A stretch of DNA of 64,000 nucleotides. It comes from Candidatus Woesebacteria bacterium (GTDB taxonomy: Bacteria; Patescibacteriota; Microgenomatia; UBA8517). The DNA lies in NCBI GenBank assembly GCA_016700095.1, contig CP065002.1, forward strand, positions 560,463 to 624,462. Direction: 5' to 3'. The position numbers and the translations under genes are program-made. A model generated the notes under the pieces. The model was not told where the DNA came from and did no database searches. It was given only the letters and a program-made list of their open reading frames with translations. Of the stretch, positions 4,248-38,631 are shown in pieces; position 1 is the stretch's first letter; each line of letters opens with the position of its first letter.

Positions 4248-4362
4248 TATTTAATCACAATAAATCACCAATCCGATTTAGACTCGATTGGTATGATGAT
4301 TGTTTGTGATTATTACTTTCATAAGTAAAGGAATTGTAAAGCTCCATTTTGACAATGTCAAA

Positions 4363-13015: not shown

Positions 13016-13024
13016 TTATATATT

Positions 13025-14622: not shown

Positions 14623-14708
14623 TTTTTGCTGTTTAAGAGTATAGAGTCGAGTAGTTTATTGTCAAGAGCCTATCGTTGGAAAGTAGATCGTAGTATAATC
14701 TAAAAAAT

Positions 14709-15443: not shown

Positions 15444-15455
15444 AACTATATAATA

Positions 15456-16226: not shown

Positions 16227-17670
16227 TTTTGTTTATCCCAAGCTTACCTTACTTATGCTTGTTTTTCGTTAAAAATTAAAGTAAGCGATGCACTTACTTT
16301 ATTCACACTTATTTGGGCAATTCCACTTCGTAAACATGGCCGGGTCAGCATGAATAATTAATTATTGAGGAAACATAAGACTTAAATATTTTTGATACAT
16401 CGACAAAGGGGGAGGAGTGTGGGTGTAAGTATATCCTATAATATATTATGCGACGTATTTACCTCATTGTTTTCACGAATATTATAGGATCTTTTCACGA
16501 AATAGGTTAGTTTTTCATCGACCATAATTTAGCCGAAGCTAGACGCCGTTAGGAAAGTAAATAGATGTTATACAATGATATAGTTAATAGGCACGAAAGA
16601 CCCCATTAGTGATATAGTTTGTACAATAAATGTGGATATCTTTATATCGACTTGGTAGGTTTGCTAGGTACGCTACTTTCTTTGGAGCTATATTTCAAGG
16701 TACCCGGACAAAGAGGATGACGGTAAGACGGGTTTAGTTAAGCCTTAGAACCCCTTATTGGTTCTCTGTAATTACGGTACGCCAAAGCGTGTGTAGTTAT
16801 AAGAACATCAAAAAGTAATAAGTCGCACAATAATACTTTTGCGACTAATACAATATACCAGGGTGGAGACTTCATAGATAACAACTTCCATAAACATATC
16901 GCGTTAAGTATTGTATTACTTTACTATAAATGTATTTAGTTCTCCTTTTAGTAAGTTGGCTAAACAATCTTTCCGAATATATACCGAAATATATTTTTAG
17001 CCTTCTAACCTTACTCCCCCAACTTGTTGTGTGAATTTACTTTATGAAAATATAGCGAGAGATAATATTTTTATAAAGTAAACTTTGACGTGTAGGGATA
17101 AGACATAAATAGGGGTTATTAATTAGTTACTGAGTAAAATAATATTAAGTGAATGAATCTCATATCATTAAAGAAAACAAACATGGCTTAGAATTGAAAT
17201 AAGAAAGCCATAGCCTTAAAAAGAAGCGAATTTAAGCCTATTTATGATACACAATATTGAATATTGAATTTATGAAATAGCATATAGGAAATGTTAAATA
17301 CTAATTAATGAATATTGGAAAACAAAATTAAAGACAAAATGTTAGACAATTAAAGACGGATTATTAGAAAACTTAATTGAAAGCGAAAATAACACAATAT
17401 TGAATTCGAATATTGAAAAGAGTAAACGCATATCGAAATGAAATAAAGAAAACTGAATATTTAACAAGGGAAAATGAAATCTGTAGTTATGTGTAACTTG
17501 TAAGACTAAAGTAATGCAAGCTTAATATGCGGTATTCAAAGCTCGTGGTTTGAAGGCATAAGAAAAGAGATAATAACAAAAAAATTATTGGTCGCACATT
17601 ATTGACAATAAAAACACTACCCTGTAGGATGAAATTATAGCTGTTTAATTAAAACATCTTACTGTAACTC
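16227..17670. other. 1.45 kb AT-rich region with no ORF of 60 aa or more on either strand; purine-rich plus strand over 17150-17520
   Basis: The ORF track is empty here. Visible local hairpins (gtcgca...tgcgac at about 16825-16850, gaacc...ggttc, ggctt...aagcc) and repeated AATATTGAAT motifs. Confidence 0.5.
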
Positions 17671-18627
17671 ATGGCTGCCCGCTCTGAAATTAGTCAACAC
17701 ATTGATTCCTTTTTGGAATATTTGGAGGTTGAGAAGGGCTCCTCTCCCCTAACAATTCGCAATTACCGTCATTACTTAACTCGCTTTCTTGAATATCTGG
17801 AGCATGAGGGGATTAGAACTAATTTAGCCGATATAAACAAAGAAACAGTTCGCATGTTTAGACTTTACTTAAGCCGGCTTCCGGGTAGTCCACGAAATTC
17901 ACAGCTTGATGCTGAAACGCTTTCAAGAAGGACGCAAGGATATCATGTTATTGCGCTCAGATCATTCCTTCGTTGGTTAATCAAAAACGACTTTAAGGTT
18001 ATGTCTCCTGATAAAATCGATTTACCCAAAGTCAAAGACAGAGAAGTACAGTTTTTGTCGGGGGAGCAAGTAGATAAAATTCTAAACGCCCCTACCCTAT
18101 CTAACATTAACGGTAAACGAGATAAAGCGATTTTAGAAGTGTTATTTTCTACCGGTCTTAGAGTATCGGAGTTGGTTAAATTAAATAAAGATAAAATTGA
18201 TTTTGCTTCACGGGAATTTGGTGTTGTTGGTAAAGGTGGGCGCGCAAGGGTGGTTTTTTTGTCTCAGCGGGCAGCTTCTTGGATACAAAATTATTTAGAT
18301 GCCAGACGTGATCATTTCACTCCCCTGTTCATCCGCCATAAAGGAAAAGTCGATCCATCAACGTCAAGTGAAAACATGCGTCTTACACCACGGAGTGTAC
18401 AAAGAATGATAAAAAAATATTCACATAAAATGAAGTTACCGATTGAAGTTACTCCACACGTCCTTAGACACAGTTTTGCCACAGATTTACTTATGGCAGG
18501 GGCAGACCTGAGAAGTGTACAAGAAATGCTTGGACACAAGAATGTGCAAACAACGCAAATCTATACACATGTAACCAATAAACAATTAAAGGATGTGCAT
18601 GAGGCGTTTCATGGAAGAGTAAAATAG
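17671..18627 (+). CDS. Tyrosine site-specific recombinase (XerC/XerD / phage integrase family)
   Basis: C-terminal HVLRHSFATDLLMAGADLRSVQEMLGHKNVQTTQIYTHV carries the R..H-x-x-R...Y catalytic motifs. The N-terminus is a SAM-like core-binding domain. Confidence 0.85.
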   Translation: MAARSEISQHIDSFLEYLEVEKGSSPLTIRNYRHYLTRFLEYLEHEGIRTNLADINKETVRMFRLYLSRLPGSPRNSQLDAETLSRRTQGYHVIALRSFLRWLIKNDFKVMSPDKIDLPKVKDREVQFLSGEQVDKILNAPTLSNINGKRDKAILEVLFSTGLRVSELVKLNKDKIDFASREFGVVGKGGRARVVFLSQRAASWIQNYLDARRDHFTPLFIRHKGKVDPSTSSENMRLTPRSVQRMIKKYSHKMKLPIEVTPHVLRHSFATDLLMAGADLRSVQEMLGHKNVQTTQIYTHVTNKQLKDVHEAFHGRVK

Positions 18628-23461: not shown

Positions 23462-25465
<2,004 letters not shown>

Positions 25466-25521
25466 TCACGTTAATGTAACTTACAACTGTAGTAGTTTAT
25501 AGTATACCTTGGGTAGAATTG

Positions 25522-26136
25522 TCAAACAAGATGCGTAATAAAGTTAAGCAACTGAAGTTTGACATTACCATTATCTAATAGCGCCAGATACAATTTATCG
25601 GCAGACTTCACATTAGTTGCGGCACGGATATCGACTTTATCCTGTAAATCATGTTGATAGTAATTTATTAGCGTTTCGGCAAATTGCAAAGCGGATTCTC
25701 GGTCTTTAATTTGTGATATAAATGTAAGTTTTTCGCCGATGGTCATCGCGTCAAAGTCAAGTGCTTCTTGGGAAACGTTCGCCGGTTGAGATGTTATGTA
25801 AATAACCTGACACCGCGAAGTAATGGTGGGAATTACTTTATGAATATTATTTGTGACCAAAATGTAGAACAAGTTCACCTGAGGCTCCTCGATACTTTTA
25901 AGAAGGGCGTTTGCCGCTTCGTGTGACAGATCTTGCAGATTGTTAACCAAAACAATCGTTGCTGTATCGATCTTTAATTTTGTAAAACCGATTAGCTTTC
26001 GTACGTCTTCAATTTTTTTAATTTCAAATTCAATAACCTTAGCACTTATTCTTTTCACCAACTTGTCAATTTCGCAATTTATGGCATCACCACCACTTCC
26101 TACAAGTAAATATGCATGCATAGCTAAATATAACAT
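25522..26136 (-). CDS. DNA polymerase III delta-prime-like subunit (short)
   Basis: HAYLLVGSGG with no intact P-loop, then LLKSIEEP...TITSRCQ, the clamp-loader AAA+ sensor motifs. Confidence 0.55.
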   Translation of the reverse strand: MLYLAMHAYLLVGSGGDAINCEIDKLVKRISAKVIEFEIKKIEDVRKLIGFTKLKIDTATIVLVNNLQDLSHEAANALLKSIEEPQVNLFYILVTNNIHKVIPTITSRCQVIYITSQPANVSQEALDFDAMTIGEKLTFISQIKDRESALQFAETLINYYQHDLQDKVDIRAATNVKSADKLYLALLDNGNVKLQLLNFITHLV

Positions 26137-26433
26137 TTAATACTGCCAGAGAAAATGGAAACGACATTGTTACAATTTGATGCGAAAGGGCTGTACAAAT
26201 GAAACATGTAGGGTTTTGGTAACGAGACTAAAATGCGCTATAATAGTTGTTCACGACAATTAAGCCTCTTTTTTGTCAAAAAAAACAATTGATAAAATTA
26301 TTTTTGGGCTTTTTGGCGGCGTTTTTTGTTTTATTAAACTTACTACTTTTACCTGTTAACGTATTGTGTAGAGGTAATCGCACGTAAAAAATACGACAAA
26401 CTACGTGTAAGTAATGTCTTATAGAAATTTATT

Positions 26434-28200
26434 ATGACAACAAAGTTAAAAAGGAAGAAAGATTTGCCAAGATTTTCTGTTGTGGCAAAACACTTTATGA
26501 ATTTTGCTGCCGGAAAACGAGGTTGGTATATCCTTTTTGTCGTTATCTTAACCGTTCAATCGGCAATTTATGCAACTCTCCCCTACTTTTACAAAATATT
26601 TGTTGATGCTATTCCCTCGTTGAACCTTACATTATTGGTAAAAATATTGGGATTTTTTGTAATTGTAAGGATTGTTGAAATGTTACTTAGTGTTTTGGCT
26701 CACACTTTAGGAGATGTGAATTTAATCGATTCCGCAAAACTTGCGCGTATAAGAGTCGTCGAAAAAGTCCAACAGCTTGATTTTGCCTATCATACGACAA
26801 AAAGTACGGGATCTTTGATTAGCTCCGTCAAACGTGGCGATGGTGCTTATTTTGGAATATTTCATGACCTGCATTTTCGTGTTTACAGCACGTTGGTCGA
26901 ATTTGGAGTTATGATTTACTTTTTTGGGAAAATAAATTTCTATATTTCTCTTATAGTTGTTGTCTCAATCGTAATAAGCTTGATTGCGGCTAAATATATA
27001 GTTAATTACAACATTGATAAACGCACGAATCACCTGAAAGACGAAGATGAGATTTCGGGTGTAATTGTTGACAATTTTGTAAATTTTGAAACTGTTAAAT
27101 ATTTTGCAAAAGAAAAATTTGAGATAAGCAGATTGGAACAAAAATTTGCCATCTGGACAAAGAGCCTTTGGGGTTTCGCGAATTCGTTTAGGGTTTTTGA
27201 TATCACACTTTCTCTAATCAATATCGTTACAATGGCGTTTATTTTACTTTTCGCACTCTATCTTTCGGTTGAAGGACAAATCGAACTGGGCGACTTTGTC
27301 CTTATTGGAGCATTTATGAGTACCGTGTATCCCAGGCTTTTCGCAATGATTTGGGATTTCAGAAATCTCGCAAAAAACTATGCTGATATTCAAAAATATT
27401 TTTATGTATTTGGCTTGGAACCTGAGATAAAAGATCCGAAAACTCCGGTAACACTCAACAGCGTTCGTGGTGAAATCGCATTCAACCGTGTAGTTTTTTC
27501 GTATAAAGAAGGTAAGAAAAATGCTATTAATAACTTGTCTTTGAATATTCGTCAGGGCCAGTCTGTTGCACTTGTGGGTCGATCGGGTTCGGGTAAAACG
27601 ACGTTGGTAAAACTTCTGATGCGCTTTTACGATTTAACCGCCGGAAGCATTGTAATTGATGATGTAAATATCAAAGCATTTGATAAGTCGTATCTGAGAA
27701 GTCTTATGGGAATTGTGCCGCAAGAACCAGTTTTGTTTAACAACACGATCGGTTATAACATCGGCTACGGAAAGTCACATGCCACAAAGAATGAAATTAT
27801 TTCTGCTGCAAAGCTTGCGAATTTACACAATTTTATAATGACGCTTCCGAAAAAATACGACACGAATGTTGGCGAGCGGGGTGTGAAATTGTCCGGCGGA
27901 CAAAAGCAAAGACTTGCAATTGCCCGTATGGTTTTGTCTAATCCTGACATTGTTGTTTTCGATGAAGCAACAAGTCAGTTAGACAGCGAAAATGAAAAAC
28001 TTATTCAGGAAGCTTTTTGGCAAGCTGTCAAAAATAAAACGACAATTATTATCGCTCATAGGCTTTCTACTGCGATGAGAGCTGACAAAATTATCGTGAT
28101 GGATAATGGAAAAATTGTCGAGGAAGGATCACATCATGCACTTTTGGCTAGAGAAAGTTTATATAAGTACTTTTGGAATTTGCAGATAAACGTCGATTAA
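26434..28200 (+). CDS. ABC transporter, fused permease/ATPase (MsbA-like exporter)
   Basis: Six-TM domain, then Walker A GRSGSGKTT, signature LSGGQKQRLAIAR, and Walker B IVVFDEATS. Confidence 0.85.
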   Translation: MTTKLKRKKDLPRFSVVAKHFMNFAAGKRGWYILFVVILTVQSAIYATLPYFYKIFVDAIPSLNLTLLVKILGFFVIVRIVEMLLSVLAHTLGDVNLIDSAKLARIRVVEKVQQLDFAYHTTKSTGSLISSVKRGDGAYFGIFHDLHFRVYSTLVEFGVMIYFFGKINFYISLIVVVSIVISLIAAKYIVNYNIDKRTNHLKDEDEISGVIVDNFVNFETVKYFAKEKFEISRLEQKFAIWTKSLWGFANSFRVFDITLSLINIVTMAFILLFALYLSVEGQIELGDFVLIGAFMSTVYPRLFAMIWDFRNLAKNYADIQKYFYVFGLEPEIKDPKTPVTLNSVRGEIAFNRVVFSYKEGKKNAINNLSLNIRQGQSVALVGRSGSGKTTLVKLLMRFYDLTAGSIVIDDVNIKAFDKSYLRSLMGIVPQEPVLFNNTIGYNIGYGKSHATKNEIISAAKLANLHNFIMTLPKKYDTNVGERGVKLSGGQKQRLAIARMVLSNPDIVVFDEATSQLDSENEKLIQEAFWQAVKNKTTIIIAHRLSTAMRADKIIVMDNGKIVEEGSHHALLARESLYKYFWNLQINVD

Positions 28201-28378
28201 TAGTGCCGCAAAAGAAACATTTTAAAAACTGGTATTTAAAATATTTCGCGGTCAACACATTGCCACTTCTTTTTAATTTAGTTTTTATTCATTCAAATTT
28301 GTTATTAATGGTATGATCGTTTTTTCAATGACATACTAATATTATCTTGCTATACTGAAATAGTATTATTAATAAGTT

Positions 28379-30112
28379 ATGACTGCCCAAACAAATACAT
28401 TTCCCGATAGTGTGGATACGAAAACACTGGCTGATATATTGGCGGATCAAGGTGTTATAAACTCGGATAAAGCAAAACAGATTAAATTCACGGAAATTCA
28501 AACCGGTAAACCTCAGGAAGAAATCATAAAAACACAAAACATCGTGAGTGAAAGTGATTTGACGAAAGCTAAGGCTGCCCTGTACAACATCCCCTATCTG
28601 GATTTAAGTACTGTACCCACCTCCCCCGAAGCACTTTCCAAGTTGCCTAAAACGGTAGCTGAGCGGTTTAGGGCATTTCCTGTGTCCATCGATTCGGTGA
28701 ATAATTTAATAAATGTCGCGATGGCTGATCCTTTGGATTTGACGGCTATCGAATTTATCGAGCAACGTACCGGTTTTATGGTAAAACCGTATGCTGCTGA
28801 TCCGACAACGGTAGAAAACCTGATCGCAACCGGTTACTCCTCTACTCTGGCAAGAGAGGTTACCGCTGCACTAAAAGACGTTTCACCGGGTGCCACGCAA
28901 GTACGTATGATGGATACTTCCCGTACGGGTGTAATCCGAGAAGAAAAAGTGGCGGAAATTGTCACTCATATTTTAAGTTTTGCTATGAAAGCACGAGCGT
29001 CCGACGTACATATTGAACCGCAAGAATATGCTACAAGAGTCAGATATCGAATTGACGGAATTTTGCAAGAGAAATTAACAACCCCAAGAGAACTTCATGA
29101 AGCCCTGGTTTCCAGGATTAAAATTCTCTCAGGTCTAAAAATTGACGAAAAGCGTATTCCCCAGGATGGTAGATTCAATTTCCGTTCGGAAGATCAGGAA
29201 GTCGACCTTCGCGTCTCTTCCTTGCCTACCACATGGGGTGAAAAAATTGTAATGCGGTTACTGAAAAAAACCGGTGGTGTACCGGATTTGCCCGATCTTG
29301 GACTTCGTGGCAGAGCACTGAAAAACTTGGAAGATGCGATTTTAAGGCCACACGGCATAATTCTTATTTGCGGACCAACAGGATCGGGTAAAACAACAAC
29401 CTTGTATTCGATTATTCAAAGAATTAATACACCCAAAATTAACATTGTAACTTTGGAAGACCCGATCGAATACAAAATCCAAGGTGTCAACCAGGTTCAG
29501 GTAAATCCGGGAGCAGGACTTACATTTGCATCCGGTCTTCGGTCGTTTTTGCGGCAAGACCCCAACGTCATTCTGGTGGGAGAAATTCGCGACCAGGAAA
29601 CAGCCGATTTAGCTATTCAAGCGTCTTTGACTGGCCATCTGGTCTTTGCAACACTTCATACGAACGATGCGGCGGGAGCACTTCCCCGACTTTTGGATAT
29701 GGGTGCCGAGCCATATCTTTTGTCATCGTCGATGACGGCAATTGTCGCTCAGCGTGTCGTTAGAAAAATTGATGAGAATTCTAAAGAGGAAGATCATCCC
29801 AGTCCAAAGGCGATTGAAGACATGAAAAATGAGTTAGGAACGCTTTGGCCGAAAGACAAAAAAATTATTTATTACAAAGGTTTACCGACAAAAGAAAACA
29901 ACAATACAGGCTATCATGGAAGGATGGGAGTATTTGAAGTATTGCCAGTTACCGAAAAAATAAGTAGGCTTATATTAGAGCGATCAGCGGCAGGAGCGAT
30001 TAATAAGGTAGCTGTTGAGGAAGGAATGATAACCATGAAACAAGATGGGTACTTGAAAGTGTTGGAAGGGACAACTACATTAGAAGAAGTACTACGTGTT
30101 GCACAAGAATAA
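28379..30112 (+). CDS. pilB: Type IV pilus assembly ATPase PilB / GspE family
   Basis: GSPII_E N-domain, Walker A GPTGSGKTTT, and Asp/His boxes. Confidence 0.85.
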   Translation: MTAQTNTFPDSVDTKTLADILADQGVINSDKAKQIKFTEIQTGKPQEEIIKTQNIVSESDLTKAKAALYNIPYLDLSTVPTSPEALSKLPKTVAERFRAFPVSIDSVNNLINVAMADPLDLTAIEFIEQRTGFMVKPYAADPTTVENLIATGYSSTLAREVTAALKDVSPGATQVRMMDTSRTGVIREEKVAEIVTHILSFAMKARASDVHIEPQEYATRVRYRIDGILQEKLTTPRELHEALVSRIKILSGLKIDEKRIPQDGRFNFRSEDQEVDLRVSSLPTTWGEKIVMRLLKKTGGVPDLPDLGLRGRALKNLEDAILRPHGIILICGPTGSGKTTTLYSIIQRINTPKINIVTLEDPIEYKIQGVNQVQVNPGAGLTFASGLRSFLRQDPNVILVGEIRDQETADLAIQASLTGHLVFATLHTNDAAGALPRLLDMGAEPYLLSSSMTAIVAQRVVRKIDENSKEEDHPSPKAIEDMKNELGTLWPKDKKIIYYKGLPTKENNNTGYHGRMGVFEVLPVTEKISRLILERSAAGAINKVAVEEGMITMKQDGYLKVLEGTTTLEEVLRVAQE

Positions 30113-30115
30113 AAT

Positions 30116-31180
30116 ATGGGCATAAAAGATTTATTACAACTGACAGTAGATAAAAACGCATCCGATTTACATATTTTGGCTGGTATAGCACCCCACTTGA
30201 GAATTGAAGGAGTTTTGGCACCCATTCGTGACGCCGGAATCGTTACCGCAGAAGTTGTTGAGAAATATGTCAAAGACATTCTTACTGCTGAGCAATTTGA
30301 GAAACTTTCTATAAATAAAGAAATTGATTTTTCGCTTTCCTTTAACGAAAAGGCACGTTTCAGGGTTAACGCTTATACGCAAAAAGGCAATTATGCGATT
30401 GCTTTCCGTGCAATCCCTCTTCGGGTGCCAAAGATTGAGGATTTGGGACTTCCACATATTTTGCATTCTTTTACGGGATTAAAGCAGGGCTTTATTTTAG
30501 TTACGGGACCAACGGGTCATGGAAAATCAACAACTCTTGCGGCGATGATTGATGAGATAAACGATAATCGTGCGGAGCACATTGTGACCATTGAAGATCC
30601 GATTGAATTTATTTTTACACCGAAGCTCTCCATGATCTCTCAGCGCGAGATGGGTTTTGATACTCATTCTTGGCAAGTTGCCCTTAGAAGCGCACTTCGC
30701 GAGGATCCTGATATTGTCCTTGTTGGCGAGATGCGCGATTACGATACGATTTCGAGCGCAATTACTGTTGCGGAAACCGGTCATTTAGTTTTTTCTACAC
30801 TTCATACCAATTCCGCGGCACAAACAATTGACAGGATAGTCGATGTTTTTCCCGAAGAACAACAACAGCAAATCAGGCTTCAATTGTCAAATGTAATTGA
30901 AGCGGTTTTCTCTCTGCGTTTAGTTCCGGGCATTGACGGACGACGTGTAGTGGCTTATGAAGTGATGCTTGGTACTTCTGCTATCAAAAATTCCATCCGC
31001 GAAGGTAAAACCCACCAGATAGATAATATTATTCAGACCTCGACGGAAATGGGTATGCGCACACTGGAAATGTCGCTTGCTACTCACGTCAAGCAAGGCC
31101 GCATCACACTCGAAGTTGCCCAAACATATTCGGTTAGACCCGAAGAATTGGCAAGACTGGTTAGAACTACCAAAGATTAA
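30116..31180 (+). CDS. pilT: Twitching-motility retraction ATPase PilT
   Basis: GPTGHGKSTTLAAMIDEIN plus the PilT-type C-terminus. Confidence 0.85.
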   Translation: MGIKDLLQLTVDKNASDLHILAGIAPHLRIEGVLAPIRDAGIVTAEVVEKYVKDILTAEQFEKLSINKEIDFSLSFNEKARFRVNAYTQKGNYAIAFRAIPLRVPKIEDLGLPHILHSFTGLKQGFILVTGPTGHGKSTTLAAMIDEINDNRAEHIVTIEDPIEFIFTPKLSMISQREMGFDTHSWQVALRSALREDPDIVLVGEMRDYDTISSAITVAETGHLVFSTLHTNSAAQTIDRIVDVFPEEQQQQIRLQLSNVIEAVFSLRLVPGIDGRRVVAYEVMLGTSAIKNSIREGKTHQIDNIIQTSTEMGMRTLEMSLATHVKQGRITLEVAQTYSVRPEELARLVRTTKD

Positions 31181-31190
31181 CCTTCAAACA

Positions 31191-32399
31191 ATGCAACGTT
31201 ATAAATACAAAGCCAAAGACCAAGCTGGTAAAGAGATTAAAGGAGAGGTGGAAGCATCAAATGAATCATTGGCAGTTAAACTTATTCGCGAAAAGCAATT
31301 GACGGTTATTTCGATGGTGCCCAAAAACGCCATCCCCTTTGCTAATCTTCTTAGTGGTATTACGGAACGTATAAGTAGCGGTGATATTGCTAATTTTACC
31401 CGCCAGTTTGCGACAATGGTAAATGCGGGACTTCCACTTACTGAATCGCTATTAATTTTGCGGTCGCAATCAAGTGGAAAAATGCAAGCTGTTATTTCAC
31501 AAGTACTAGCCGAAGTCGAAGAAGGTCAGTCGTTATCTTCGGTTATGTCGAAATTCCCCAATGTCTTTTCCAAAACTTATGTCGCTTTGATCAAAGCAGG
31601 AGAAACCGGGGGAGTTTTGGATGAGGTGTTGCTTCGCTTAGCCGACAATATGGAAAATTCGGAAGAGTTTAAAGGTAAGGTCAAGTCGGCAATGATTTAC
31701 CCGGTTATTATAATTTTCGGTATGATTGCCGTGGCTTTTGTAATGCTTGTTTTTGTCATACCAAAACTGACGGATTTGTACGATCAGTTCGACGCCGAAT
31801 TACCGTTTGCAACGCGCTTTTTGATTGGATTATCCGACTTCATGGTGAGTTACTGGCCGATCGTACTTGTGTTGGCAGCTATCGGTGGATATTCCTTTTT
31901 ACTTTACAAAAAAACTCCCGATGGCAGAAGAAGGGTGGATGGAACGATACTTAGTATTCCCCTATTTGGACCGTTGCAAAAACAAATTATTTTAACCAAT
32001 CTCGCGCGGACTTTGTCATTGATGGTTGGCTCGGGAGTGTCGATACTTGAAAGTCTTGCAATCACGTCGGGAGTGGTTGGCAATGTCGTAATTTCTGATG
32101 CTTTGGATGATTCTGCCAAAATGGTTGAAAAGGGTTTCCCTGTCGCGCTCGCTTTCTCCAGGCATCCCGAGGCATTTCCTTTCATCTTTTCTCAAATGAC
32201 GGCAGTCGGCGAAGAAACGGGAAAAATGGATGAGGTCTTGGCGAAAGTTGCCCATGTTTTCGAAGTGGAAAGTAACCAAAAGGTCAAAGCAATGACGAGT
32301 GCGATTGAGCCAATAATACTTCTTATTCTTGGAGTCGGTGTCGCCTTTCTCGTAATATCCATCATCATGCCGATTTATAATTTGACGACCTCAATTTAA
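31191..32399 (+). CDS. pilC: Type IV pilus platform protein PilC / GspF
   Basis: Two GspF repeats with TM helices. The track ORF starts at 31077 and overlaps pilT; the ATG at 31191 (MQRYKYK...) is the likely start. Confidence 0.8.
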   Translation: MQRYKYKAKDQAGKEIKGEVEASNESLAVKLIREKQLTVISMVPKNAIPFANLLSGITERISSGDIANFTRQFATMVNAGLPLTESLLILRSQSSGKMQAVISQVLAEVEEGQSLSSVMSKFPNVFSKTYVALIKAGETGGVLDEVLLRLADNMENSEEFKGKVKSAMIYPVIIIFGMIAVAFVMLVFVIPKLTDLYDQFDAELPFATRFLIGLSDFMVSYWPIVLVLAAIGGYSFLLYKKTPDGRRRVDGTILSIPLFGPLQKQIILTNLARTLSLMVGSGVSILESLAITSGVVGNVVISDALDDSAKMVEKGFPVALAFSRHPEAFPFIFSQMTAVGEETGKMDEVLAKVAHVFEVESNQKVKAMTSAIEPIILLILGVGVAFLVISIIMPIYNLTTSI

Positions 32400-32413
32400 G
32401 GTACTAGGAATTT

Positions 32414-32483
32414 AGTAGTTGGCAGGTAGCATGTAGCAGATAGCATGTAGCAGGTAGTTGGTAGAAAGCAGTTAGTAGATAGG
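32414..32483. repeat. About 10 tandem heptamers, (AGCAKGT)n / GTAGCAK family
   Basis: agtagtt ggcaggt agcatgt agcagat agcatgt agcaggt agttggt agaaagc agttagt agatagg, read directly. Confidence 0.8.
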
Positions 32484-32583
32484 TTTTAATTTTAACCTAT
32501 GCTTTTGGCTTTTCGTTTTTTACTTTTAGTTCTTCGCTTTAATTTTTAATATTTAGTATTATTAACAACTTTCACGCCGACAC

Positions 32584-32612
32584 TTGACAGACAAGCCAAG
32601 CTAGTCAATACT
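32584..32612 (+). promoter_or_regulatory. Candidate sigma70-like promoter for major pilin 1 (perfect TTGACA -35, weak -10 AATACT)
   Basis: TTGACA at 32584-32589, a 17-nt spacer, then AATACT. The -10 is weak. Confidence 0.3.
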
Positions 32613-32678
32613 TAAATATAAGAAAAATTATCAAACAGTTTTGTTTGTAGTTTTGTAAAAGGGGGTGAGAATGAAAAA

Positions 32679-33203
32679 ATGACTGTCCAAAATTTAAAGA
32701 AAAATTTTAGAGATTTGCGTTCCGGTTTTACCCTCATCGAGCTTTTAATCGTTATTGCCATTCTCGGTGTGCTGGCTGTAGTTGTACTTGTAGCTATTAA
32801 TCCTGTACAGCAATTAGCAAGAACCAGAGACGCAGGAAGGATTTCGACTGTCGCACAGTTGGGTCATGCTTCTGAAGCTTATTACACAGCACAAGGAGCG
32901 GTTTATCCGCAAACCTTAGCAGCTCTTGCATCAACCGGAGAATTGAATCAAGTTCCTGGTATGGTTGATAATTCGTTGACAACCGAATGTACCGGACATA
33001 CTGATGGTTGGTGTGTAGATGTCGACGCTGATCCTGCAACCGAAATTGCAATTTGGTCGGCATTAGAAGCCCAGACGAATATTAGTTTGTGTGGTGTATC
33101 AGCTACTGCGGCTTATGCTGCTTATCTGTCAAGTGCAGGTAGGACTTGTATCGTGTGTGATGAGCCAACTAGTGCCACAACTGATACAGATTGTGTTAAC
33201 TAA
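32679..33203 (+). CDS. Type IV major pilin 1 (prepilin with N-terminal cleavage/methylation motif)
   Basis: Leader MTVQNLKKNFRDLRSG then FTLIELLIVIAILGVLAVVVLVAINP. RBS-like aaaggggg upstream. Confidence 0.8.
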   Translation: MTVQNLKKNFRDLRSGFTLIELLIVIAILGVLAVVVLVAINPVQQLARTRDAGRISTVAQLGHASEAYYTAQGAVYPQTLAALASTGELNQVPGMVDNSLTTECTGHTDGWCVDVDADPATEIAIWSALEAQTNISLCGVSATAAYAAYLSSAGRTCIVCDEPTSATTDTDCVN

Positions 33204-33206
33204 TCT

Positions 33207-33247
33207 CGTAAAAAAGAGGCATTGTGAAATATATGCCTCTTTTTTGT
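33207..33247 (+). terminator. Rho-independent terminator after pilin 1
   Basis: aaaaagaggcat-tgtgaaatat-atgcctc followed by ttttttg. Confidence 0.6.
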
Positions 33248-33391
33248 GGGAAATCGATCCAGTGATTGGACTTGTTAAACTAATTTCGCAATATTTATAC
33301 TCTGGATTCCCCGACTTACACATTGTTATCCTTGACCTGCCTCGCCCATCGTAGCTAATTGGCGAAGGTGGAATCAAATCTTATATTTATC

Positions 33392-33767
33392 TGTCATCCC
33401 GCACTTGATGCGGGATCCAATATTCTCTTCTGGATTCCCGCTTTCGCGGGAATGACAATTCACCTTACTGTCATCCCACACTCCCGCCTACAACGCTTTG
33501 TGTAGCAACGCGGGCAGGTGATACGGGATCCAGTCCACATTCTTTCTGGATTCCCGCGTGCGCGGGAATGACAAAGAGGGACTGCAGGAATGACAAAAAA
33601 CGGGAATAACAAAAGCGCGCGGGAATGACAATTCACCTTACTGTCATCCCGCACTTGATGCGGGATCCAATATTTCTTTCCTGGATTCCCTTTTCCTCCT
33701 TCGCTGAAAGCTACGGAAGGACACGGCAAGGGAATGACAAAGAGGGACTGCGGGAATGATAATGATT
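33392..33767. repeat. GC-rich cluster of nested hairpin repeats with TGTCATCCC...GGGAATGACA ends and ATTCCC-N8-GGGAAT inner hairpins (dRS3-like)
   Basis: Three composite units at 33392-33457, 33469-33573 and 33642-33739. Units 1 and 3 begin with the same 30-odd bases. Repeated stems are atcccgca/tgcgggat, attcccgc/gcgggaat and tgtcat/atgaca. The cluster is visibly GC-richer than its flanks. Confidence 0.75.
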
Positions 33768-33843
33768 TAGATGCGAGAACACTAATGAAACGCGTATTGT
33801 TCTTGCATATTACTAACCAAATACAGTAAATTAAAGTATTAGC

Positions 33844-34362
33844 ATGAAAAGAAACCTCGGATTTACACTCATTGAACTACTGATTGTTATCGCCATTCTT
33901 GGAGTAATGGCTGTTGTAATGCTTGTTGTGATTAACCCAGTTGAGCGCTTGGCGCAAAGTAGAGACGCAGGAAGAATTTCTACAATTACACAATTAGGTC
34001 ATGCTGGAGCCGCTTACTATACCGACAAAGCAAGTTATCCAACAGAAGCAAACTGGGCGCAGGAGTTAATTGATGCAGGAACCCTGAAATCTTTTCCTGC
34101 AGGAGTTGCCTATACTGCAAATGATGTTGTTCATTGCGCATCTCAAGAACAACCTGTATTTAATCCTACATTTTGTTATGAAACCGATGCCTTGCTCGAC
34201 CCGATTATGTTTGCCCGCGCTGAGGCGGATATTCACAATCTTAAGTGTACAGTCGGTGGAGCCTACTTTGTCTATTCATTTGAAGATGGACGAGCTGGTA
34301 CAGTTTGTTCAGTCGATGACCCTGATCCATGGGCTGCGGGAACGCAGACGTATGTGGAGTAG
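33844..34362 (+). CDS. Type IV major pilin 2, paralog of pilin 1
   Basis: MKRNLG then FTLIELLIVIAILGVMAVVMLVVINPVERLAQSRDAGRIST. The first ~50 mature residues are near-identical to pilin 1; the C-terminal domain is divergent. Confidence 0.8.
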   Translation: MKRNLGFTLIELLIVIAILGVMAVVMLVVINPVERLAQSRDAGRISTITQLGHAGAAYYTDKASYPTEANWAQELIDAGTLKSFPAGVAYTANDVVHCASQEQPVFNPTFCYETDALLDPIMFARAEADIHNLKCTVGGAYFVYSFEDGRAGTVCSVDDPDPWAAGTQTYVE

Positions 34363-34487
34363 CCACCAGCCAACAAACAACAAACAACGGCTAATAAATA
34401 ACCGCATTAAAATTACAAATAGTCCGATATTTTCTTTTCACTATTCAATATTTGATATTAAGTATTTGATATTCAATATTCAAATCC

Positions 34488-34531
34488 CCAACTACCAACT
34501 ACTTGCTACTTACTACATGCTACCTGCTACC
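34488..34531. repeat. Inverted copy of the heptamer array (CTACMTG)n
   Basis: ccaactaccaactacttgctacttactacatgctacctgctacc, the reverse complement of the 32.4 kb array motif. Confidence 0.75.
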
Positions 34532-34652
34532 TAAAACTAAATACGTAAGACAGAAATTTATTACAATAATTATAAATTACTCTAATTCATCTAATTGCAA
34601 ATTGGAAATCAATTAGAAATTATAAATTAGGTCAATTAGTGAATTTAAATTC

Positions 34653-34740
34653 CCATCTACCAACTACTTACTACCTGCTACATGCTACCTGCTACCTGCT
34701 ACATGCTATCTACCAACTATCATCTACTATCTACCCACAC
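34653..34740. repeat. Second inverted heptamer array, about 12 units of (CTACMTG)n
   Basis: It contains ctacctgctacatgctatc, the exact reverse complement of gatagcatgtagcaggtag at 32436-32454. Confidence 0.8.
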
Positions 34741-34787: not shown

Positions 34788-35609
34788 ATGGAGGCAATTT
34801 ATCTTCTTTTAATTATAGTCAGCGGTTTCGTGATGGGATCGTTTATTACGGCGTATTCATATCGCGCACCAAGAAAAAAAAGCATTGCAAAGGGTAGGTC
34901 GTTTTGTGATAGCTGTGGGAAAAAGATAAGTTGGTATGACAACATTCCCCTATTTTCCTATATCTTGCTTAATTCCAAAAGCCGTTGCTGTAATAAAAAA
35001 ATCGGACGCAGGTATCCCTCGATTGAAATCTCGACGGCGGCAATTTTTTCTCTTATGTATTTTGCTTACAAAAATTGTTCCTTTGCAGGTAATTTCCCCG
35101 TTTTACCTAGTACCGTTTGTTCGATGCGTGAATCATTTGGAATCGGTGCGCTATTTCTTTTACTATTTGCGGTAGTGATTTTAATAAGTATTTTTGTTAT
35201 CGATTTTGAAAACCAGATAATTCCCGATGAACCCGTTTTCTTACTTTTTACGGTAGCATTTTTGGTGTTTGTTTTAGGAACGTCCCCCCTGCTGTATCAA
35301 AATTTACTGGTGGCTTTTGCGGTTGCGGCGTTTTTCCTATTACTGAATTTGATCACTTTGGGACGCGGGATGGGTTTGGGAGACGTAAAACTTTCTCTCG
35401 TCCTTTCATTTATTCTCGGTTGGCCAAACAGTTTTGTCTTTCTTTTTGCAAGCTTTGTTACAGGTTCAATTGTCGGAGTATTTCTAATTTTAACCGGAAA
35501 AGCAAAATTCGGTAAACATATCCCCTTTGGACCTTTTTTGGTTTTTTCATTTTTTATGGTACTAATCTTTGGCCCGCTATTTGTATTTCCAATGTTACCG
35601 TATTATTAA
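34788..35609 (+). CDS. pilD: Prepilin peptidase (A24 family) PilD
   Basis: N-terminal Zn-binding CDSCGKK...CCNKK, the Asp-containing TM core, and a ggagg RBS. Confidence 0.85.
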   Translation: MEAIYLLLIIVSGFVMGSFITAYSYRAPRKKSIAKGRSFCDSCGKKISWYDNIPLFSYILLNSKSRCCNKKIGRRYPSIEISTAAIFSLMYFAYKNCSFAGNFPVLPSTVCSMRESFGIGALFLLLFAVVILISIFVIDFENQIIPDEPVFLLFTVAFLVFVLGTSPLLYQNLLVAFAVAAFFLLLNLITLGRGMGLGDVKLSLVLSFILGWPNSFVFLFASFVTGSIVGVFLILTGKAKFGKHIPFGPFLVFSFFMVLIFGPLFVFPMLPYY

Positions 35610-35659: not shown

Positions 35660-36265
35660 ATGAAACCGTTTTCAAGGCAAGAAGGTGTCGTGGTTACAAT
35701 TATTTTGGCATTAATACTTACGGCATCTTTATATAATTTTAGAATTTCACTGCGACGGACCAGGGATTCACAAAGAAGGTCGGACACCAATAGCGTTGTC
35801 AGCGCACTCACCTATTACAAGGATGAGACCGGAAGGGCTCCTTTGTCGACTGCGGATGGAAGAATAATTGCCTGTGAACCGGAAAATCACGCAGAGCTTG
35901 CCGAGAAACTAATTAATCGAGAAATAAATACCTATGAGTATTTAGAGGGACTTGTACCATGTACATGGGGAAATGACAAGATTGTGGATTTAATTAGCGG
36001 TAAAGTGTATATGGAGGTACTACCCATGGATCCAAAAGGCAATGAGGATTTATCATATAAATACATATCAAACGGGAGAATATTCCAGCTTTATTCGTAC
36101 ATGGAGGGTGGAAAAGATGAAGAAGCATTTAGTGAAGCAATTGTTGCCAGAAACCTACTGTGCGGAGTAAGTATTTGCAATCAGGGAAAAGCTTATGAAA
36201 AAACTGCACTTGATAAATCATTGGAAGAATATGAAAATGAATTAACAATTAAAAATGCGAAATAA
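35660..36265 (+). CDS. Pilin-like hypothetical (N-terminal hydrophobic helix, non-canonical cleavage motif)
   Basis: MKPFSRQEGVVVTIILALILTASLYNF. It sits inside the minor-pilin block. Confidence 0.4.
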   Translation: MKPFSRQEGVVVTIILALILTASLYNFRISLRRTRDSQRRSDTNSVVSALTYYKDETGRAPLSTADGRIIACEPENHAELAEKLINREINTYEYLEGLVPCTWGNDKIVDLISGKVYMEVLPMDPKGNEDLSYKYISNGRIFQLYSYMEGGKDEEAFSEAIVARNLLCGVSICNQGKAYEKTALDKSLEEYENELTIKNAK

Positions 36266-36701
36266 ATCTGCCTTTACACTTATTGAATTACTTATTGTGA
36301 TGGCTGTTTTGGGACTTCTGACTGCCATGGTTATGCTTACGTACCCCACGTCACAAGAAAAAGCGCGCGATACGAGACGCAAAAGCGACATTAAACAGTA
36401 TCAAACGGCGATGGAGGTGTACGCAACCAGGCATAATAATTTGTTTGCCACTAGCAGTAATGCAGTTGCAAATGCGACGACCTTGTGCGCTACTTTTAAC
36501 TTAACCAGTTGCCCTGACGATCCGCGATTAATCGGCTCTCAACCCAACTATAAATATGCATCGACGGCAAACACTTACGTTTTCTGGGCGCAGTTGGAAC
36601 GGCCCAATACAGCTAATTTAACTCAATGGTTTGTGGTTTGTTCAAACGGAAAAGCGGGTGATTCCACTACTCAACCAAGTAACGCAACATGCCCAATATA
36701 A
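36255..36701 (+). CDS. Type IV minor pilin
   Basis: MRNKSA then FTLIELLIVMAVLGLLTAMV, a prepilin motif. Confidence 0.7.
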   Translation: MRNKSAFTLIELLIVMAVLGLLTAMVMLTYPTSQEKARDTRRKSDIKQYQTAMEVYATRHNNLFATSSNAVANATTLCATFNLTSCPDDPRLIGSQPNYKYASTANTYVFWAQLERPNTANLTQWFVVCSNGKAGDSTTQPSNATCPI

Positions 36702-37132
36702 CTATGCACAAAAAAACTAATAAGGGTTTTACCCTGGTAGAGCTATTAATAACAATGATGATTGTTGCGATTCTTGCCGCCATTAGTATTTTTGGTTTGC
36801 AAGGTGCACGTGAGTCCGGCAGGGATGCCAAAAGGAAAGCGGATCTGGAGTCGATTAGATCAGCACTTGAAATTTACAGGGCTGATTGTGGAAATTATCC
36901 GGCATCGCTTGGGACGTCGATAACCGGTGCTTGTCCAGGACCAGCAGCAAACACTTATATGCAGGCAGTCCCCACTGACCCACTTGGTGGAGCTTATATT
37001 TACAATAGAATTACACTTACAAGCTATCGGATATGTTCGACTTTAGAGCAAATTCCGGATCCGGCAAACGATGTTTCGGGTTGTTCGGGATGTAGCGGTG
37101 GAGATTGTCGCTATAGAGTGTTAAATCCATGA
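36689..37132 (+). CDS. Type IV minor pilin
   Basis: NKG then FTLVELLITMMIVAILAAISI. Confidence 0.7.
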   Translation: MPNITMHKKTNKGFTLVELLITMMIVAILAAISIFGLQGARESGRDAKRKADLESIRSALEIYRADCGNYPASLGTSITGACPGPAANTYMQAVPTDPLGGAYIYNRITLTSYRICSTLEQIPDPANDVSGCSGCSGGDCRYRVLNP

Positions 37133-37668
37133 TGTACTTCGATTTGCGTTTAAACATGAGACGCCCAATAAATATCCAAACACGACAACGAGGTTTTACT
37201 TTCATTGAACTTCTGATAGGTCTGGTGATTATGGGAATACTCTTTATGGTGGGATTTGCCAATTATCGTGGGTTTGCAAGTAGACAAAACATCGAAGCTG
37301 TTGTGAGAGAAATGAAAGGAGACCTGAGATTAGCGCAGCAAATGGCGACAAGTGGGGTCAAGTCGAGTGATCCGGCCAGTTCGTGTCATGCTATCGATAA
37401 GGAATTGCAAGGATATGTTGTGAGAGGAACAAGCGCAACATCTTACGCAGTTTACGCAAACTGCGACGGAGAAAATCTTGTCAAGGAAGTCAATCTTTCC
37501 GAAAAATATCCCAATATAACGCTTTCAGATTTCGAATTTACTTTCTTACCGCTTGCCGGAGGGATAACCTGGTCGGGACCGGATAGGATAGATATTGACG
37601 AAGTTGTTGGTGGTGCAAGTATTGAATCGCGACAAATTATAGTGACCGCAGCCGGCCAAATCAATTAA
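37129..37668 (+). CDS. Pseudopilin (GspH/FimT-like)
   Basis: QRG then FTFIELLIGLVIMGILFMVG. The start is possibly the Met at 37156. Confidence 0.6.
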   Translation: MMYFDLRLNMRRPINIQTRQRGFTFIELLIGLVIMGILFMVGFANYRGFASRQNIEAVVREMKGDLRLAQQMATSGVKSSDPASSCHAIDKELQGYVVRGTSATSYAVYANCDGENLVKEVNLSEKYPNITLSDFEFTFLPLAGGITWSGPDRIDIDEVVGGASIESRQIIVTAAGQIN

Positions 37669-38097
37669 ATGAAAAATCATAAAGGACAATCGCTTTTTGA
37701 AATAGTAATTACGGTTGGTATTTCTGCTTTGATTATTGTTGGTGTTGTGTCATTGGCGAATAAAACGCTAGGTAATACCAATGCTGCCCGTGACCGTTCA
37801 CTTGCTGCTAGATATGTCCAGGAAATGACGGAATGTCTAAGGAAACAAAGGGATGCAAATTGGGATACATTTATCGCAAATGGGGCGACCAGCTGTGTGT
37901 CAAACGTTGCAACTCAATCCCACTTTACAGGTAAAACAATTTTACTGAATTGTTTTGACAAGGATGAAAACGCGGTTTTATGCAGTTTGCCTACTGCCGT
38001 ACAGGCCGAGGCTGATGTGGCAATTGGCTGGGATGATGGATCGGGATCACATGTTGTGCGCACCATTACTCGATTTACGGATTGGAGACGGCAATAA
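37669..38097 (+). CDS. Type IV minor pilin (PilV-like)
   Basis: MKNHKG then QSLFEIVITVGISALIIVGVV, G-x4-E. Confidence 0.55.
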   Translation: MKNHKGQSLFEIVITVGISALIIVGVVSLANKTLGNTNAARDRSLAARYVQEMTECLRKQRDANWDTFIANGATSCVSNVATQSHFTGKTILLNCFDKDENAVLCSLPTAVQAEADVAIGWDDGSGSHVVRTITRFTDWRRQ

Positions 38098-38112
38098 ATT
38101 CAAAGTTAAATC

Positions 38113-38631
38113 ATGCTAAAAAATCAAACAATAACCCCAACCAAAATTAAAGGTTTTTCTTTGGTAGAACTTTTGATTGTTGTTACGATATTTGCGATCT
38201 TGTCGGTTGTCGGTACACAAATTGTTACTGTTAGTCTAAGAAGTACAACCAAAAGTGAGGAGATGTCTACCGTACGTGAAGATGTCGATTTTGTTTTGAA
38301 TGTGATCAACAGACAGTTAAGAAACGCCAAAAGTATCGACTGTACCGCTTCAAATCCGATTCAATTATCTTACACCAACGCAGACGGCAATCCGGCTACT
38401 ATTGCTTGCGTTAATAGTACAAATGGTGAAATTCGACTAGATGGTACCAGGATAAATTCTGCAAATACGCTTATTAATTGCAACTTCCCAACCGTACCCG
38501 CGATATTTATTTGTACACCGTCAATTGGAACAAATCCTCCGGCTGTCCAAGTTGCTTTGACGGCGAGAAATTCTGCCAACAGCACATCCGTTGTTTCGAG
38601 TGTTGTTAACATTGTTTTAAGGTCTTATTAA
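38113..38631 (+). CDS. Type IV minor pilin (PilW/GspJ-like)
   Basis: KIKG then FSLVELLIVVTIFAILSVVG. Confidence 0.6.
   Translation: MLKNQTITPTKIKGFSLVELLIVVTIFAILSVVGTQIVTVSLRSTTKSEEMSTVREDVDFVLNVINRQLRNAKSIDCTASNPIQLSYTNADGNPATIACVNSTNGEIRLDGTRINSANTLINCNFPTVPAIFICTPSIGTNPPAVQVALTARNSANSTSVVSSVVNIVLRSY

Follow-up and report, generated by a model that had tools for sequence, protein, structure and literature searches.

In this study, we investigated a hairpin repeat cluster at positions 33392-33767 of a 64,000-nucleotide stretch of a Candidatus Woesebacteria genome (contig CP065002.1, positions 560,463 to 624,462), and this whole stretch is referred to below as the window. The cluster lies in a type IV pilus locus, in which PilB (28379-30112), a PilT-like ATPase (30116-31180) and PilC (31191-32399, GenBank QQS39535.1) are followed by two tandem pilin genes, a prepilin peptidase (34788-35609) and minor pilins (36255-38631). 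Pilin 1 (32679..33203, plus strand, 174 aa, QQS39536.1), the exact sequence of which is recorded for Candidatus Woesebacteria, and pilin 2 (33844..34362, plus strand, 172 aa, QQS39537.1) flank the cluster, and both carry the prepilin N-methylation motif (Pfam N_methyl PF07963, E 9.9e-9 and 6.3e-8, respectively); we infer that they are major pilins, and they serve here as context, outside the hairpin element. The spacer between them measures 640 nt and contains a terminator-like hairpin of pilin 1 at 33210..33245 on the plus strand (inverted repeat I3, with a 13-bp perfect stem that is 100% complementary, a 10-nt loop and a T-run), which marks the left limit of the original spacer. As the accessions of the two pilins are consecutive, GenBank appears to hold no annotated coding sequence between them. 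Among approximately 14 spacers of at least 150 nt in the window, this spacer is the only GC-rich one, as the cluster has a GC fraction of 0.505 compared with 0.31-0.35 in the adjacent spacers and 0.386 in the whole window.

The cluster consists of three composite units with half-sites around them. Each unit follows the same plan of a plus-strand hairpin, here called hairpin A (TGTCATCCCGCACTTGATGCGGGATCCA), a short spacer and an inverted hairpin (CTGGATTCCC..GGGAATGACA), so that the units, which are 66-105 nt long, have the ends TGTCATCCC / GGGAATGACA. Hairpin A has an 8-bp stem, ATCCCGCA, and a 5-nt loop, CTTGA, with GTC upstream of the palindrome and a C after it. Unit 1 (33392-33457) starts with hairpin A copy 1 at its left end (33392..33419, plus strand) and, after a 10-nt spacer, closes at its right end with an inverted hairpin (NTS copy 1, 33430..33457, minus strand, TGTCATTCCCGCGAAAGCGGGAATCCAG) that contains an exact dRS3 repeat at 33434-33453. 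The linker ATTCACCTTAC (33458..33468) separates unit 1 from unit 2; it is repeated exactly at 33631..33641, just ahead of unit 3, and falls within a 38-nt direct repeat that is 97% identical (D4). In unit 2 (33469-33573), the loop of hairpin A copy 2 (33469..33533, plus strand) is split by a 36-nt insertion (33483-33518) that is itself a hairpin, and the inverted hairpin follows as NTS copy 2 (33546..33573, minus strand, TGTCATTCCCGCGCACGCGGGAATCCAG), with an exact dRS3 at 33550-33569. Unit 3 (33642-33739) has at its left end an intact hairpin A copy 3 (33642..33669, plus strand), identical to copy 1, and then an NTS-type hairpin copy 3 (33681..33739, minus strand) with the loop enlarged to 39 nt (33691-33729) and the arms CTGGATTCCC / GGGAATGACA retained.

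Of the half-sites CAGGAATGACA, CGGGAATAACA, GCGCGCGGGAATGACA and GCGGGAATGATA, three are located between units 2 and 3 and one after unit 3. The three bare ones occupy 33574..33630 on the minus strand, namely CAGGAATGACA at 33585-95, CGGGAATAACA at 33601-11 and GCGCGCGGGAATGACA at 33615-30, and belong to the direct-repeat family D1; read on the minus strand, they are GTCATTCC 5' halves upstream of NTS copy 2, and the segment has no fold of its own (z = +0.4). The further half-site lies in the tail AAGAGGGACTGCGGGAATGATAATGA (33740..33767), which forms a 33-nt direct repeat (D6) 94% identical to 33564-33596. A promoter-like sequence, ATGACA and GATAAT separated by 18 nt, is found at 33734-33763, overlapping the tail, approximately 80 nt upstream of the start of pilin 2. 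To the left of the cluster, the segment 33289..33391 holds a spacer-like CAATATTT..CTGGATTCCC and then TGTTATCC; a 23-nt stretch in it (D3) is 83% identical to 33668-33690, and one arm of an inverted repeat (I7) is complementary to 33693-33704. Its fold is weak (z = -1.1), and with low confidence we read it as a probable remnant of an older, decayed unit.

The repeats also relate to one another at a larger scale. By alignment, 33445-33617 and 33618-33767 are two collinear copies of a super-unit of approximately 170 nt, and the differences between them are clean indels at the hairpin loops, of 36 nt in hairpin A and of 31-39 nt in the inverted hairpin. Units 1 and 3 are identical over approximately their first 34 bases and share 82% identity over 55 nt. 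The first-pass annotation of this DNA, which was made from the sequence alone, had described a GC-rich island of about 375 bp composed of three units with inverted ends and inner stem-loops, the first and third beginning with the same 30-odd bases, and all of these were found where it had placed them. Searches of the loop inserts, the linker and the tail by blastn-short against all loci gathered gave no real match. Spurious open reading frames (ORFs) run across the repeats at 33359-33505 (plus), 33460-33729 (minus) and 33625-33759 (plus), with peptides such as ..LFWIPAFAGMT.. and ..CHSRARGNPE... Peptides of this kind recur within hypothetical proteins of many genomes and are translated NTS-type repeats.

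Statistically, the motifs and folds of the cluster stand out from the window. The pattern ATTCCC-N8-GGGAAT, which defines dRS3 (PMC1797815, PMC11893778) and which the first-pass annotation had given correctly, gave two exact matches in 64 kb (33434-33453 and 33550-33569, the two stem-loops that it had singled out) against none in 100 shuffles. With at most one mismatch, TGTCATCCCGC was found in three copies in the cluster, with 0.58 expected for the whole window, and GGGAATGACA in seven copies in 314 nt. Folded as DNA, the cluster was far more stable than shuffled sequence, with z = -5.65 for the whole and -5.7, -3.2 and -4.8 for units 1, 2 and 3, respectively.

The family into which these hairpins fall was described by Chenal et al., Nat Commun 2025 (PMC11893778), where about half of the neisserial dRS3 copies were found to lie within a 28-nt sequence, the Neisseria Transformation Sequence (NTS), CGTCATTCCCGCGMAVGCGGGAATCYRG. 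According to that study, SsnA, a 94-aa GIY-YIG nuclease (cd10448), binds the hairpin that the NTS forms as single-stranded DNA, and its cut lies a few nucleotides upstream; it is inactive on double-stranded DNA, on RNA and on the opposite strand, with no RNA binding. The three bases 5' of the palindrome are critical for cleavage and the C immediately 3' of it for binding, and the mutated residues of Nm SsnA are Y6, Y17 and E64 (PMC11893778). In many phyla, ssn genes have NTS-like repeats, named Ssn-related motifs (SRM), at their flanks, and the NTS-ssnA-NTS layout was likened to an insertion sequence (PMC11893778). We applied the authors' own NTS criterion (CGTCATTCCCGCGMAVGCGGGAATCYRG with at most one mismatch; PMC11893778) and the SRM pattern HGTCWYN(0-2)YYVSBRHN(0-5)WNVSBRGN(0-2)RNCYNB. 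NTS copies 1 and 2 (33430-33457 and 33546-33573, both minus) agree with the NTS at 27/28 positions, the mismatch being T for C at position 1, which is a stronger match than the dRS3 likeness claimed earlier, and they are the two matches of the SRM pattern in the 64 kb, with none elsewhere. In the two NTS copies, as in the two intact copies of hairpin A, the palindrome has the GTC on its 5' side and the C on its 3' side; checked by hand, the hairpin A copies miss the SRM pattern solely at its last position, with A where B is required.

The likeness to the NTS/SRM-SsnA system extends to the arrangement, with hairpins in opposite orientation as in NTS-ssnA-NTS, copies clustered in an intergenic spacer, and identical hairpins flanking Ssn-like genes in other genomes, Patescibacteria included. 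On the other hand, the host here belongs to the Candidatus Woesebacteria of the candidate phyla radiation, the units lack a gene and no ssn lies within the 64 kb, hairpin A, which makes up the left end, represents a second class of hairpin, and one cluster is seen instead of hundreds of copies. The words 'Patescibacteria' and 'Candidate Phyla' are absent from the main text of PMC11893778. In comparison with neisserial dRS3/NIME arrays (Parkhill 2000; Bentley 2007, PMC1797815), the exact 20-bp repeat, the GC peaks at the repeats and the position beside pilin genes, as in the NIME arrays around pilS, are shared; the host is, however, not Neisseria, DNA uptake sequences, Correia elements and pilS cassettes are lacking, and the array is approximately 0.4 kb. 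In NIME, dRS3 flank a neisserial-family RS of approximately 50-150 bp, and the two dRS3 here, 96 bp apart, agree with this in spacing and would formally make up a minimal dRS3-RS-dRS3 unit. Bentley 2007 (PMC1797815) reported that NIME arrays were not observed outside Neisseria, a picture that has since been changed by the 2025 paper (PMC11893778). The earlier suggestion of an architecture special to Neisseria is outdated, as NTS-like repeats are known from many phyla.

Again, the distribution of hairpin A beyond the window was investigated by a scan of one GTDB genome per species for ATCCCGCNCTTGANGCGGGATCC, in which 134 hairpin A copies and 850 kb were examined. The hairpin A core was letter-identical in at least 120 stretches from at least ten phyla. 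Hosts among the matches listed include Coxiellaceae, Legionellaceae, Rickettsia, many Alphaproteobacteria, Bacteroidota, Rhodothermales, Chloroflexi, Nitrospinota, Omnitrophota, Planctomycetota, Calditrichaceae and one Firmicute, as well as Saccharibacteria, Moranbacteria, Nomurabacteria, Peribacteria, Gracilibacteria and WWE3. Among these listed matches, GTC precedes hairpin A in 129/134 copies, an inverted hairpin ending in [AG]TGAC follows in 75/134 at a median of 40 nt (compared with 3/134 control positions), a left half-site lies just upstream in 16/134, and hairpin A together with an NTS-type partner was noticed in nine other genomes. Unit 1 has a counterpart in a Saccharibacteria metagenome-assembled genome (MAG), L046, where a composite unit shows 91% identity to it over 69 nt, and a dRS3 with the loop GTGC, as in NTS copy 2, also occurs in an Alphaproteobacteria MAG (L027). 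Viruses were considered as carriers and set aside, as hairpin A is rare in viral contigs, with just four stretches in 2.9 million.

In each of L035, L092 and L106, a distance of 6-77 nt separates hairpin A from the start of a downstream single-domain GIY-YIG gene (94-98 aa); the L106 protein matches Pfam GIY-YIG PF01541 at 60.6 bits, and the L092 protein has 94 aa with Y6, Y17 and E64, the length and the residues being as in Nm SsnA. In the MAG L035 the order is hairpin A, ssn and TGGATTCCCGCCTCCGCGGGAATGACA, that is, both ends of unit 1 with a gene replacing the 10 nt between them. The nearest homologues of the L035 protein (80-91% identity) come from Roizmanbacteria and other Patescibacteria, and in Roizmanbacteria L207 the ssn gene has a composite unit on its upstream side and, on its downstream side, a right end with an expanded loop; right ends of this kind, similar to that of unit 3, stand downstream of ssn in both L035 and L207. 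Because of the order hairpin A-ssn-NTS in L035 and the other links to ssn, the units of the window are read as gene-less derivatives of an Ssn element, comparable to MITEs, the miniature transposable elements with inverted repeats.

A side observation concerns one of these proteins, as an identical 97-aa Ssn-like protein of Roizmanbacteria (P0005) was found in 147 blocks of the assembly collection. At the ten places listed (L207-L216), the downstream genes TIM and UvrD are constant and the upstream neighbours vary, with an IS3-like transposase upstream in some samples, and many contigs stop approximately 300-430 nt upstream of the gene, beside the composite hairpin unit.

The age of the cluster can be judged from relatives. 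In a set of 80 more distant relatives (689 kb), whose PilC proteins are 58-66% identical to that of the window (one 83%), neither NTS nor hairpin A was detected. In the closest syntenic relatives, L170 and L220, the spacers between pilin 1 and pilin 2 measure 88 nt and 76 nt and contain a terminator hairpin with a T-run only, and in other relatives with tandem pilins these spacers measure approximately 140-200 nt; the tandem pair thus occurs without the cluster. Since the two pilins of the window share 42% identity, compared with 52-55% between each of them and its L170 orthologue, the pair is older than the insertion. It is the cluster that was inserted here, and it subsequently gained length through a tandem duplication of approximately 170 nt and through insertions into hairpin loops. 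The first-pass annotation had offered a laterally acquired MITE-like element as one of two explanations, and this one has held up, as the element is absent from the L170 and L220 spacers and from the 80 relatives, the same unit exists in Saccharibacteria, and its ends flank ssn in L035.

Taken together, we consider it likely that the island is a mosaic of Ssn-related NTS/SRM hairpin repeats, including the dRS3 type, and that its units are gene-less miniatures of a mobile hairpin-ssn-hairpin element. The full element would consist of a left hairpin, a GIY-YIG ssn gene of approximately 290 bp and an inverted right hairpin, of which the units would keep the ends with approximately 10 nt between them. 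Such an element may have landed after the pilin 1 terminator and then grown by the tandem duplication of approximately 170 nt and by insertions into the single-stranded hairpin loops, leaving bare half-sites behind. The hairpins would extrude when either strand is single-stranded, as in replication, transformation or repair, and each would be bound by a cognate Ssn, with cleavage expected a few nucleotides 5' of GTC, a mechanism that is carried over from the enzymes of Neisseria, N. elongata, N. wadsworthii and Wolbachia. Because the ends point outward and lie on opposite strands, cutting is predicted at both outer borders of a unit. The effect on the pilin genes is probably incidental, with approximately 480 nt of structured DNA and a promoter-like sequence presumably added between them.

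Several observations weigh against the explanation by Ssn-derived elements. No ssn or GIY-YIG gene was detected in the 64-kb window, either by regular expression or by tblastn with four Ssn-like proteins (best E = 0.25), no further copies of NTS, SRM or hairpin A were found in it outside the cluster, and no target-site duplication was seen at the unit borders. To our knowledge, no transposition mechanism is known for the NTS/SRM family. NCBIfam searches of the neighbours of hairpin A gave weak GIY-YIG and group I intron endonuclease matches without a specific family; the solved structures included no Ssn, with distant SLX1 and UPF0213 matches only. Moreover, the interior of the cluster, 33421-33644, lies outside independent coverage, as the Logan contigs of run SRR11674018 are identical to the window at 23744-33420 and 33645-34700 and break at 33420 and 33645 inside the identical hairpin A copies, and no independent contig across the interior was on record when it was looked up through a spurious 89-aa ORF.

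This gap leaves room for the view that a chimeric join or a mis-assembled repeat made the GC-rich island, and a collapse or expansion of repeats could have led to a wrong number of units. We nevertheless hold an assembly artefact to be highly improbable. The Logan contigs cross both outer edges base for base, so that both outer junctions, that of the AT-rich flank with hairpin A and that of the last unit with pilin 2, have been independently assembled. Furthermore, the genes on either side of the island stand in the order seen in L170 and L220, the source record consists of one contig of 1,274,238 bp, and the hairpin family is real, being found in the many stretches from other assemblies described above.

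A role at the level of RNA or regulation is unlikely as well, and would be compatible with the explanation by Ssn-derived elements as a side effect of insertion. In this reading, the cluster would act as an insulator after the pilin 1 terminator, as a mobile promoter for pilin 2, as an mRNA-stabilising 5' structure or as a small RNA similar to FtrB. At the Rfam gathering thresholds, three tRNAs were the only matches in the window, and at relaxed thresholds the FtrB family (RF02748) aligned with 33369-33474 on the minus strand, which takes in unit 1 and has NTS copy 1 at its core, over its full length (model 1-115 of 115, 42.3 bits, E = 1.6e-5), below the gathering threshold of 66; miRNA and gltS matches at these relaxed thresholds were dismissed as noise. 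FtrB is a Northern-verified 115-nt small RNA of Francisella tularensis, single-copy with one paralogue candidate and specific to Francisella, and its mutants showed no phenotype in growth, stress, macrophage and mouse assays and few altered transcripts on microarrays (Postic 2010, PMC3091763). In both, an NTS hairpin, GUCAUUCCCGCGUAGGCGGGAAUC, comes first, and behind it stands a stem like that of hairpin A in reverse complement, with the loop CAAG; FtrB differs in being a transcribed locus. The promoter-like site, built from half-sites ahead of pilin 2, would suit a mobile promoter, and other bacterial MITEs donate promoters and small RNAs (PMC5896051); the site, however, matches the consensus only (10/12), and such sites are as frequent in shuffles (8 in the region against 7.5). 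Against a role in RNA it also counts that the cluster hairpins lack T-tracts, that in relatives the two genes are expressed with no cluster between them, and that SsnA does not bind RNA (PMC11893778). A CRISPR array, a riboswitch and an attenuator were rejected, as there are no regular spacers and no Rfam match at the gathering thresholds, and the cluster lies downstream of a terminator.

It is an observation in its own right that FtrB holds a canonical NTS hairpin and a hairpin-A-like stem, and to judge from these it looks like a transcribed two-hairpin element of the Ssn type. This connection is mentioned neither in PMC3091763 nor in the main text of PMC11893778.

Another known class, the repetitive extragenic palindromic (REP) sequences and bacterial interspersed mosaic elements (BIMEs), has the same general look of GC-rich imperfect palindromes in alternating orientation, clustered in an intergenic spacer. 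If the repeats belonged to this class, they would have been spread by a REP-associated tyrosine transposase (RAYT, IS200/IS605-like) instead of Ssn. REPs associated with RAYT typically carry the tetranucleotide GTAG at the 5' end, but the hairpins here begin with GTCAT, in keeping with the GTCAT..ATC signature of NTS/SRM, and the gene beside hairpin A encodes a GIY-YIG protein, not a Y1 transposase, although no search aimed at RAYT was made. The parallel with REP was drawn by the Ssn authors themselves (PMC11893778), and as an origin for the cluster we regard RAYT-driven spread as extremely improbable. As with MITEs and with REP/BIME elements in general, such as QMITE1/2 and the BIMEs of E. 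coli, the units are short, non-coding and palindromic with inverted ends TGTCAT...ATGACA, and they are intergenic, clustered and nested and break short-read assemblies. The differences are the target-site duplication, which was not seen here, the partner gene, which is of the GIY-YIG type instead of a DDE or Y1 transposase, and the conservation of the hairpin across phyla rather than within one species. In being short and non-coding with terminal inverted repeats the units agree with the description of a MITE; as to the target-site duplications and the many dispersed copies that also mark MITEs, no duplication is visible at the unit borders and the 64 kb contain a single cluster. A GTAG REP is mentioned for Coxiella QMITE2 (PMC5896051); QMITE1/2 were rejected as relatives of the cluster, since they differ in size, have GTAG-type REPs and show no sequence link (PMC5896051).

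The position between two pilin genes invites a further reading, namely that the array is kept since it would, in concert with a recombinase or nuclease, favour the exchange of pilin sequence or set its limits, as proposed for NIME arrays around pilS/pilE in Neisseria. The three closest genomes each have an SRM-type sequence in a spacer of the pilin locus, which lies between the two pilins in the window and between pilin 2 and PilD in both L220 and L170, and the junction of pilin 1 and pilin 2 is plastic in the clade, as seen from an island in the relative L222 and from contigs of other relatives that end just after PilC. This co-occurrence is confounded, as the relatives were picked for their pilin locus and the pilin spacers are their sole long non-coding stretches, and we therefore take it to mean that a plastic locus tolerates insertions and not that it is targeted. 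Moreover, none of the 134 listed hairpin A copies in other genomes lies within 1.8 kb of a pilin-like gene, and the two pilin-like ORFs in the 850 kb around these copies are both more than 1.8 kb distant, so that the earlier idea of an element that targets pilin loci is not supported. Nor is there support for the other first-pass explanation, a convergent recombination or variation module, as the pilins are old paralogues with just 42% identity, their tandem arrangement came before the cluster and is found where the cluster is absent, and silent cassettes were not seen; neither pilin gene has an NTS on both sides. We hold such a module to be quite improbable, and on present evidence a new mechanism of pilin variation is not revealed. 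With the same reserve, it can be imagined that Ssn-type hairpin elements in this clade are recruited or retained around pilins, where with a genome-encoded Ssn they would cut incoming or displaced single-stranded DNA between the two genes, so that each pilin gene would be exchanged as a cassette of its own during natural transformation, a conjecture to which we give only a slim chance. If true, it would make the cluster a candidate-phyla analogue of the neisserial NIME/NTS arrays around pilS/pilE, and the same pili may serve this organism for DNA uptake.

The sequences in the relatives deserve a short description of their own. In L220, the spacer between pilin 2 and PilD (4018-4090) contains CTGTCATTCCCGCGTAGGCGGGAATCCA, a spacer and TGGATCCCCAGTCAAGCTGAGGATGACA, which together form an NTS composite, and in L170 the equivalent spacer (2330-2530) holds a degenerate mosaic of GTTATTCTGAG.., ..CTCAGGATGACA and ..GCGCAATGACA pieces. 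L222, the PilC of which is 71% identical, has a 4.9-kb island between its pilins (12104-16865) with a TMEM260-like protein, a large glycosyltransferase and a methyltransferase, which may be a pilin glycosylation island, and no SRM-type element was found in its 21 kb; the junction of pilin 1 and pilin 2 is an insertion hot spot in the clade. The contigs of L218, L219, L221 and L223 break off within approximately 50-440 nt beyond PilC, either at the first pilin gene or just ahead of it, and this points to repeats or to variation among strains at this locus in the metagenomes concerned. In L170, a minor pilin (4318-5004) has a GIY-YIG domain as an in-frame fusion at its N-terminus; the domain is 32-37% identical to Ssn-like proteins (best E = 6e-7) and by our reading is UPF0213/YhbQ-like. 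No flanking hairpins were seen at this fusion, and its orthologue in the window (36255-36701) has no GIY-YIG domain.

Read as a group of Ssn-derived elements, the cluster places the NTS/Ssn system, described in 2025 mainly from cultured Pseudomonadati, in the ultra-small genome of a Candidatus Woesebacteria member. It also adds a second hairpin, GTCATCCCGCACTTGATGCGGGATCC, as the left end of Ssn elements, whose identity across phyla points to either very recent transfer or a very tight constraint by the nuclease. This hairpin sequence was not found in the text of the literature searched, and one NTS string was found there in an N. gonorrhoeae pilus paper only. The history that can be read from the cluster, with its gene-less units, duplication, loop insertions and half-sites, could help to test the idea that hairpin-ssn-hairpin units are mobile and move through single-stranded DNA. 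For annotation, the repeats account for spurious ORFs (e.g. ..WIPAFAGMT..) and for contig breaks at the locus.

Some further repeats were noticed in the window apart from the hairpin cluster. The segment 16227-17670 (1,444 nt, 31% GC) has no ORF above 48 aa and no Rfam match; it stands directly upstream of a tyrosine-recombinase-like gene (17671-18627) and contains a 22-nt tandem repeat at 17324-17376. Closer to the pilins, arrays with a 7-nt period, [G/T]GTAGCA, bracket the pilin pair in inverted orientation at 32418-32466 (plus), 34504-34531 (minus) and 34669-34710 (minus), and nearly all of the 17 matches to GGTAGCAGGTAGCA with at most three mismatches, compared with 1.8 expected, fall in these three heptad arrays. 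An AT-rich array of 7/14 nt at 34437-34483 is also near the pilin pair. Different heptad-like tracts occupy the equivalent places in L170, and the Logan contig L002 terminates within one of the heptad arrays.

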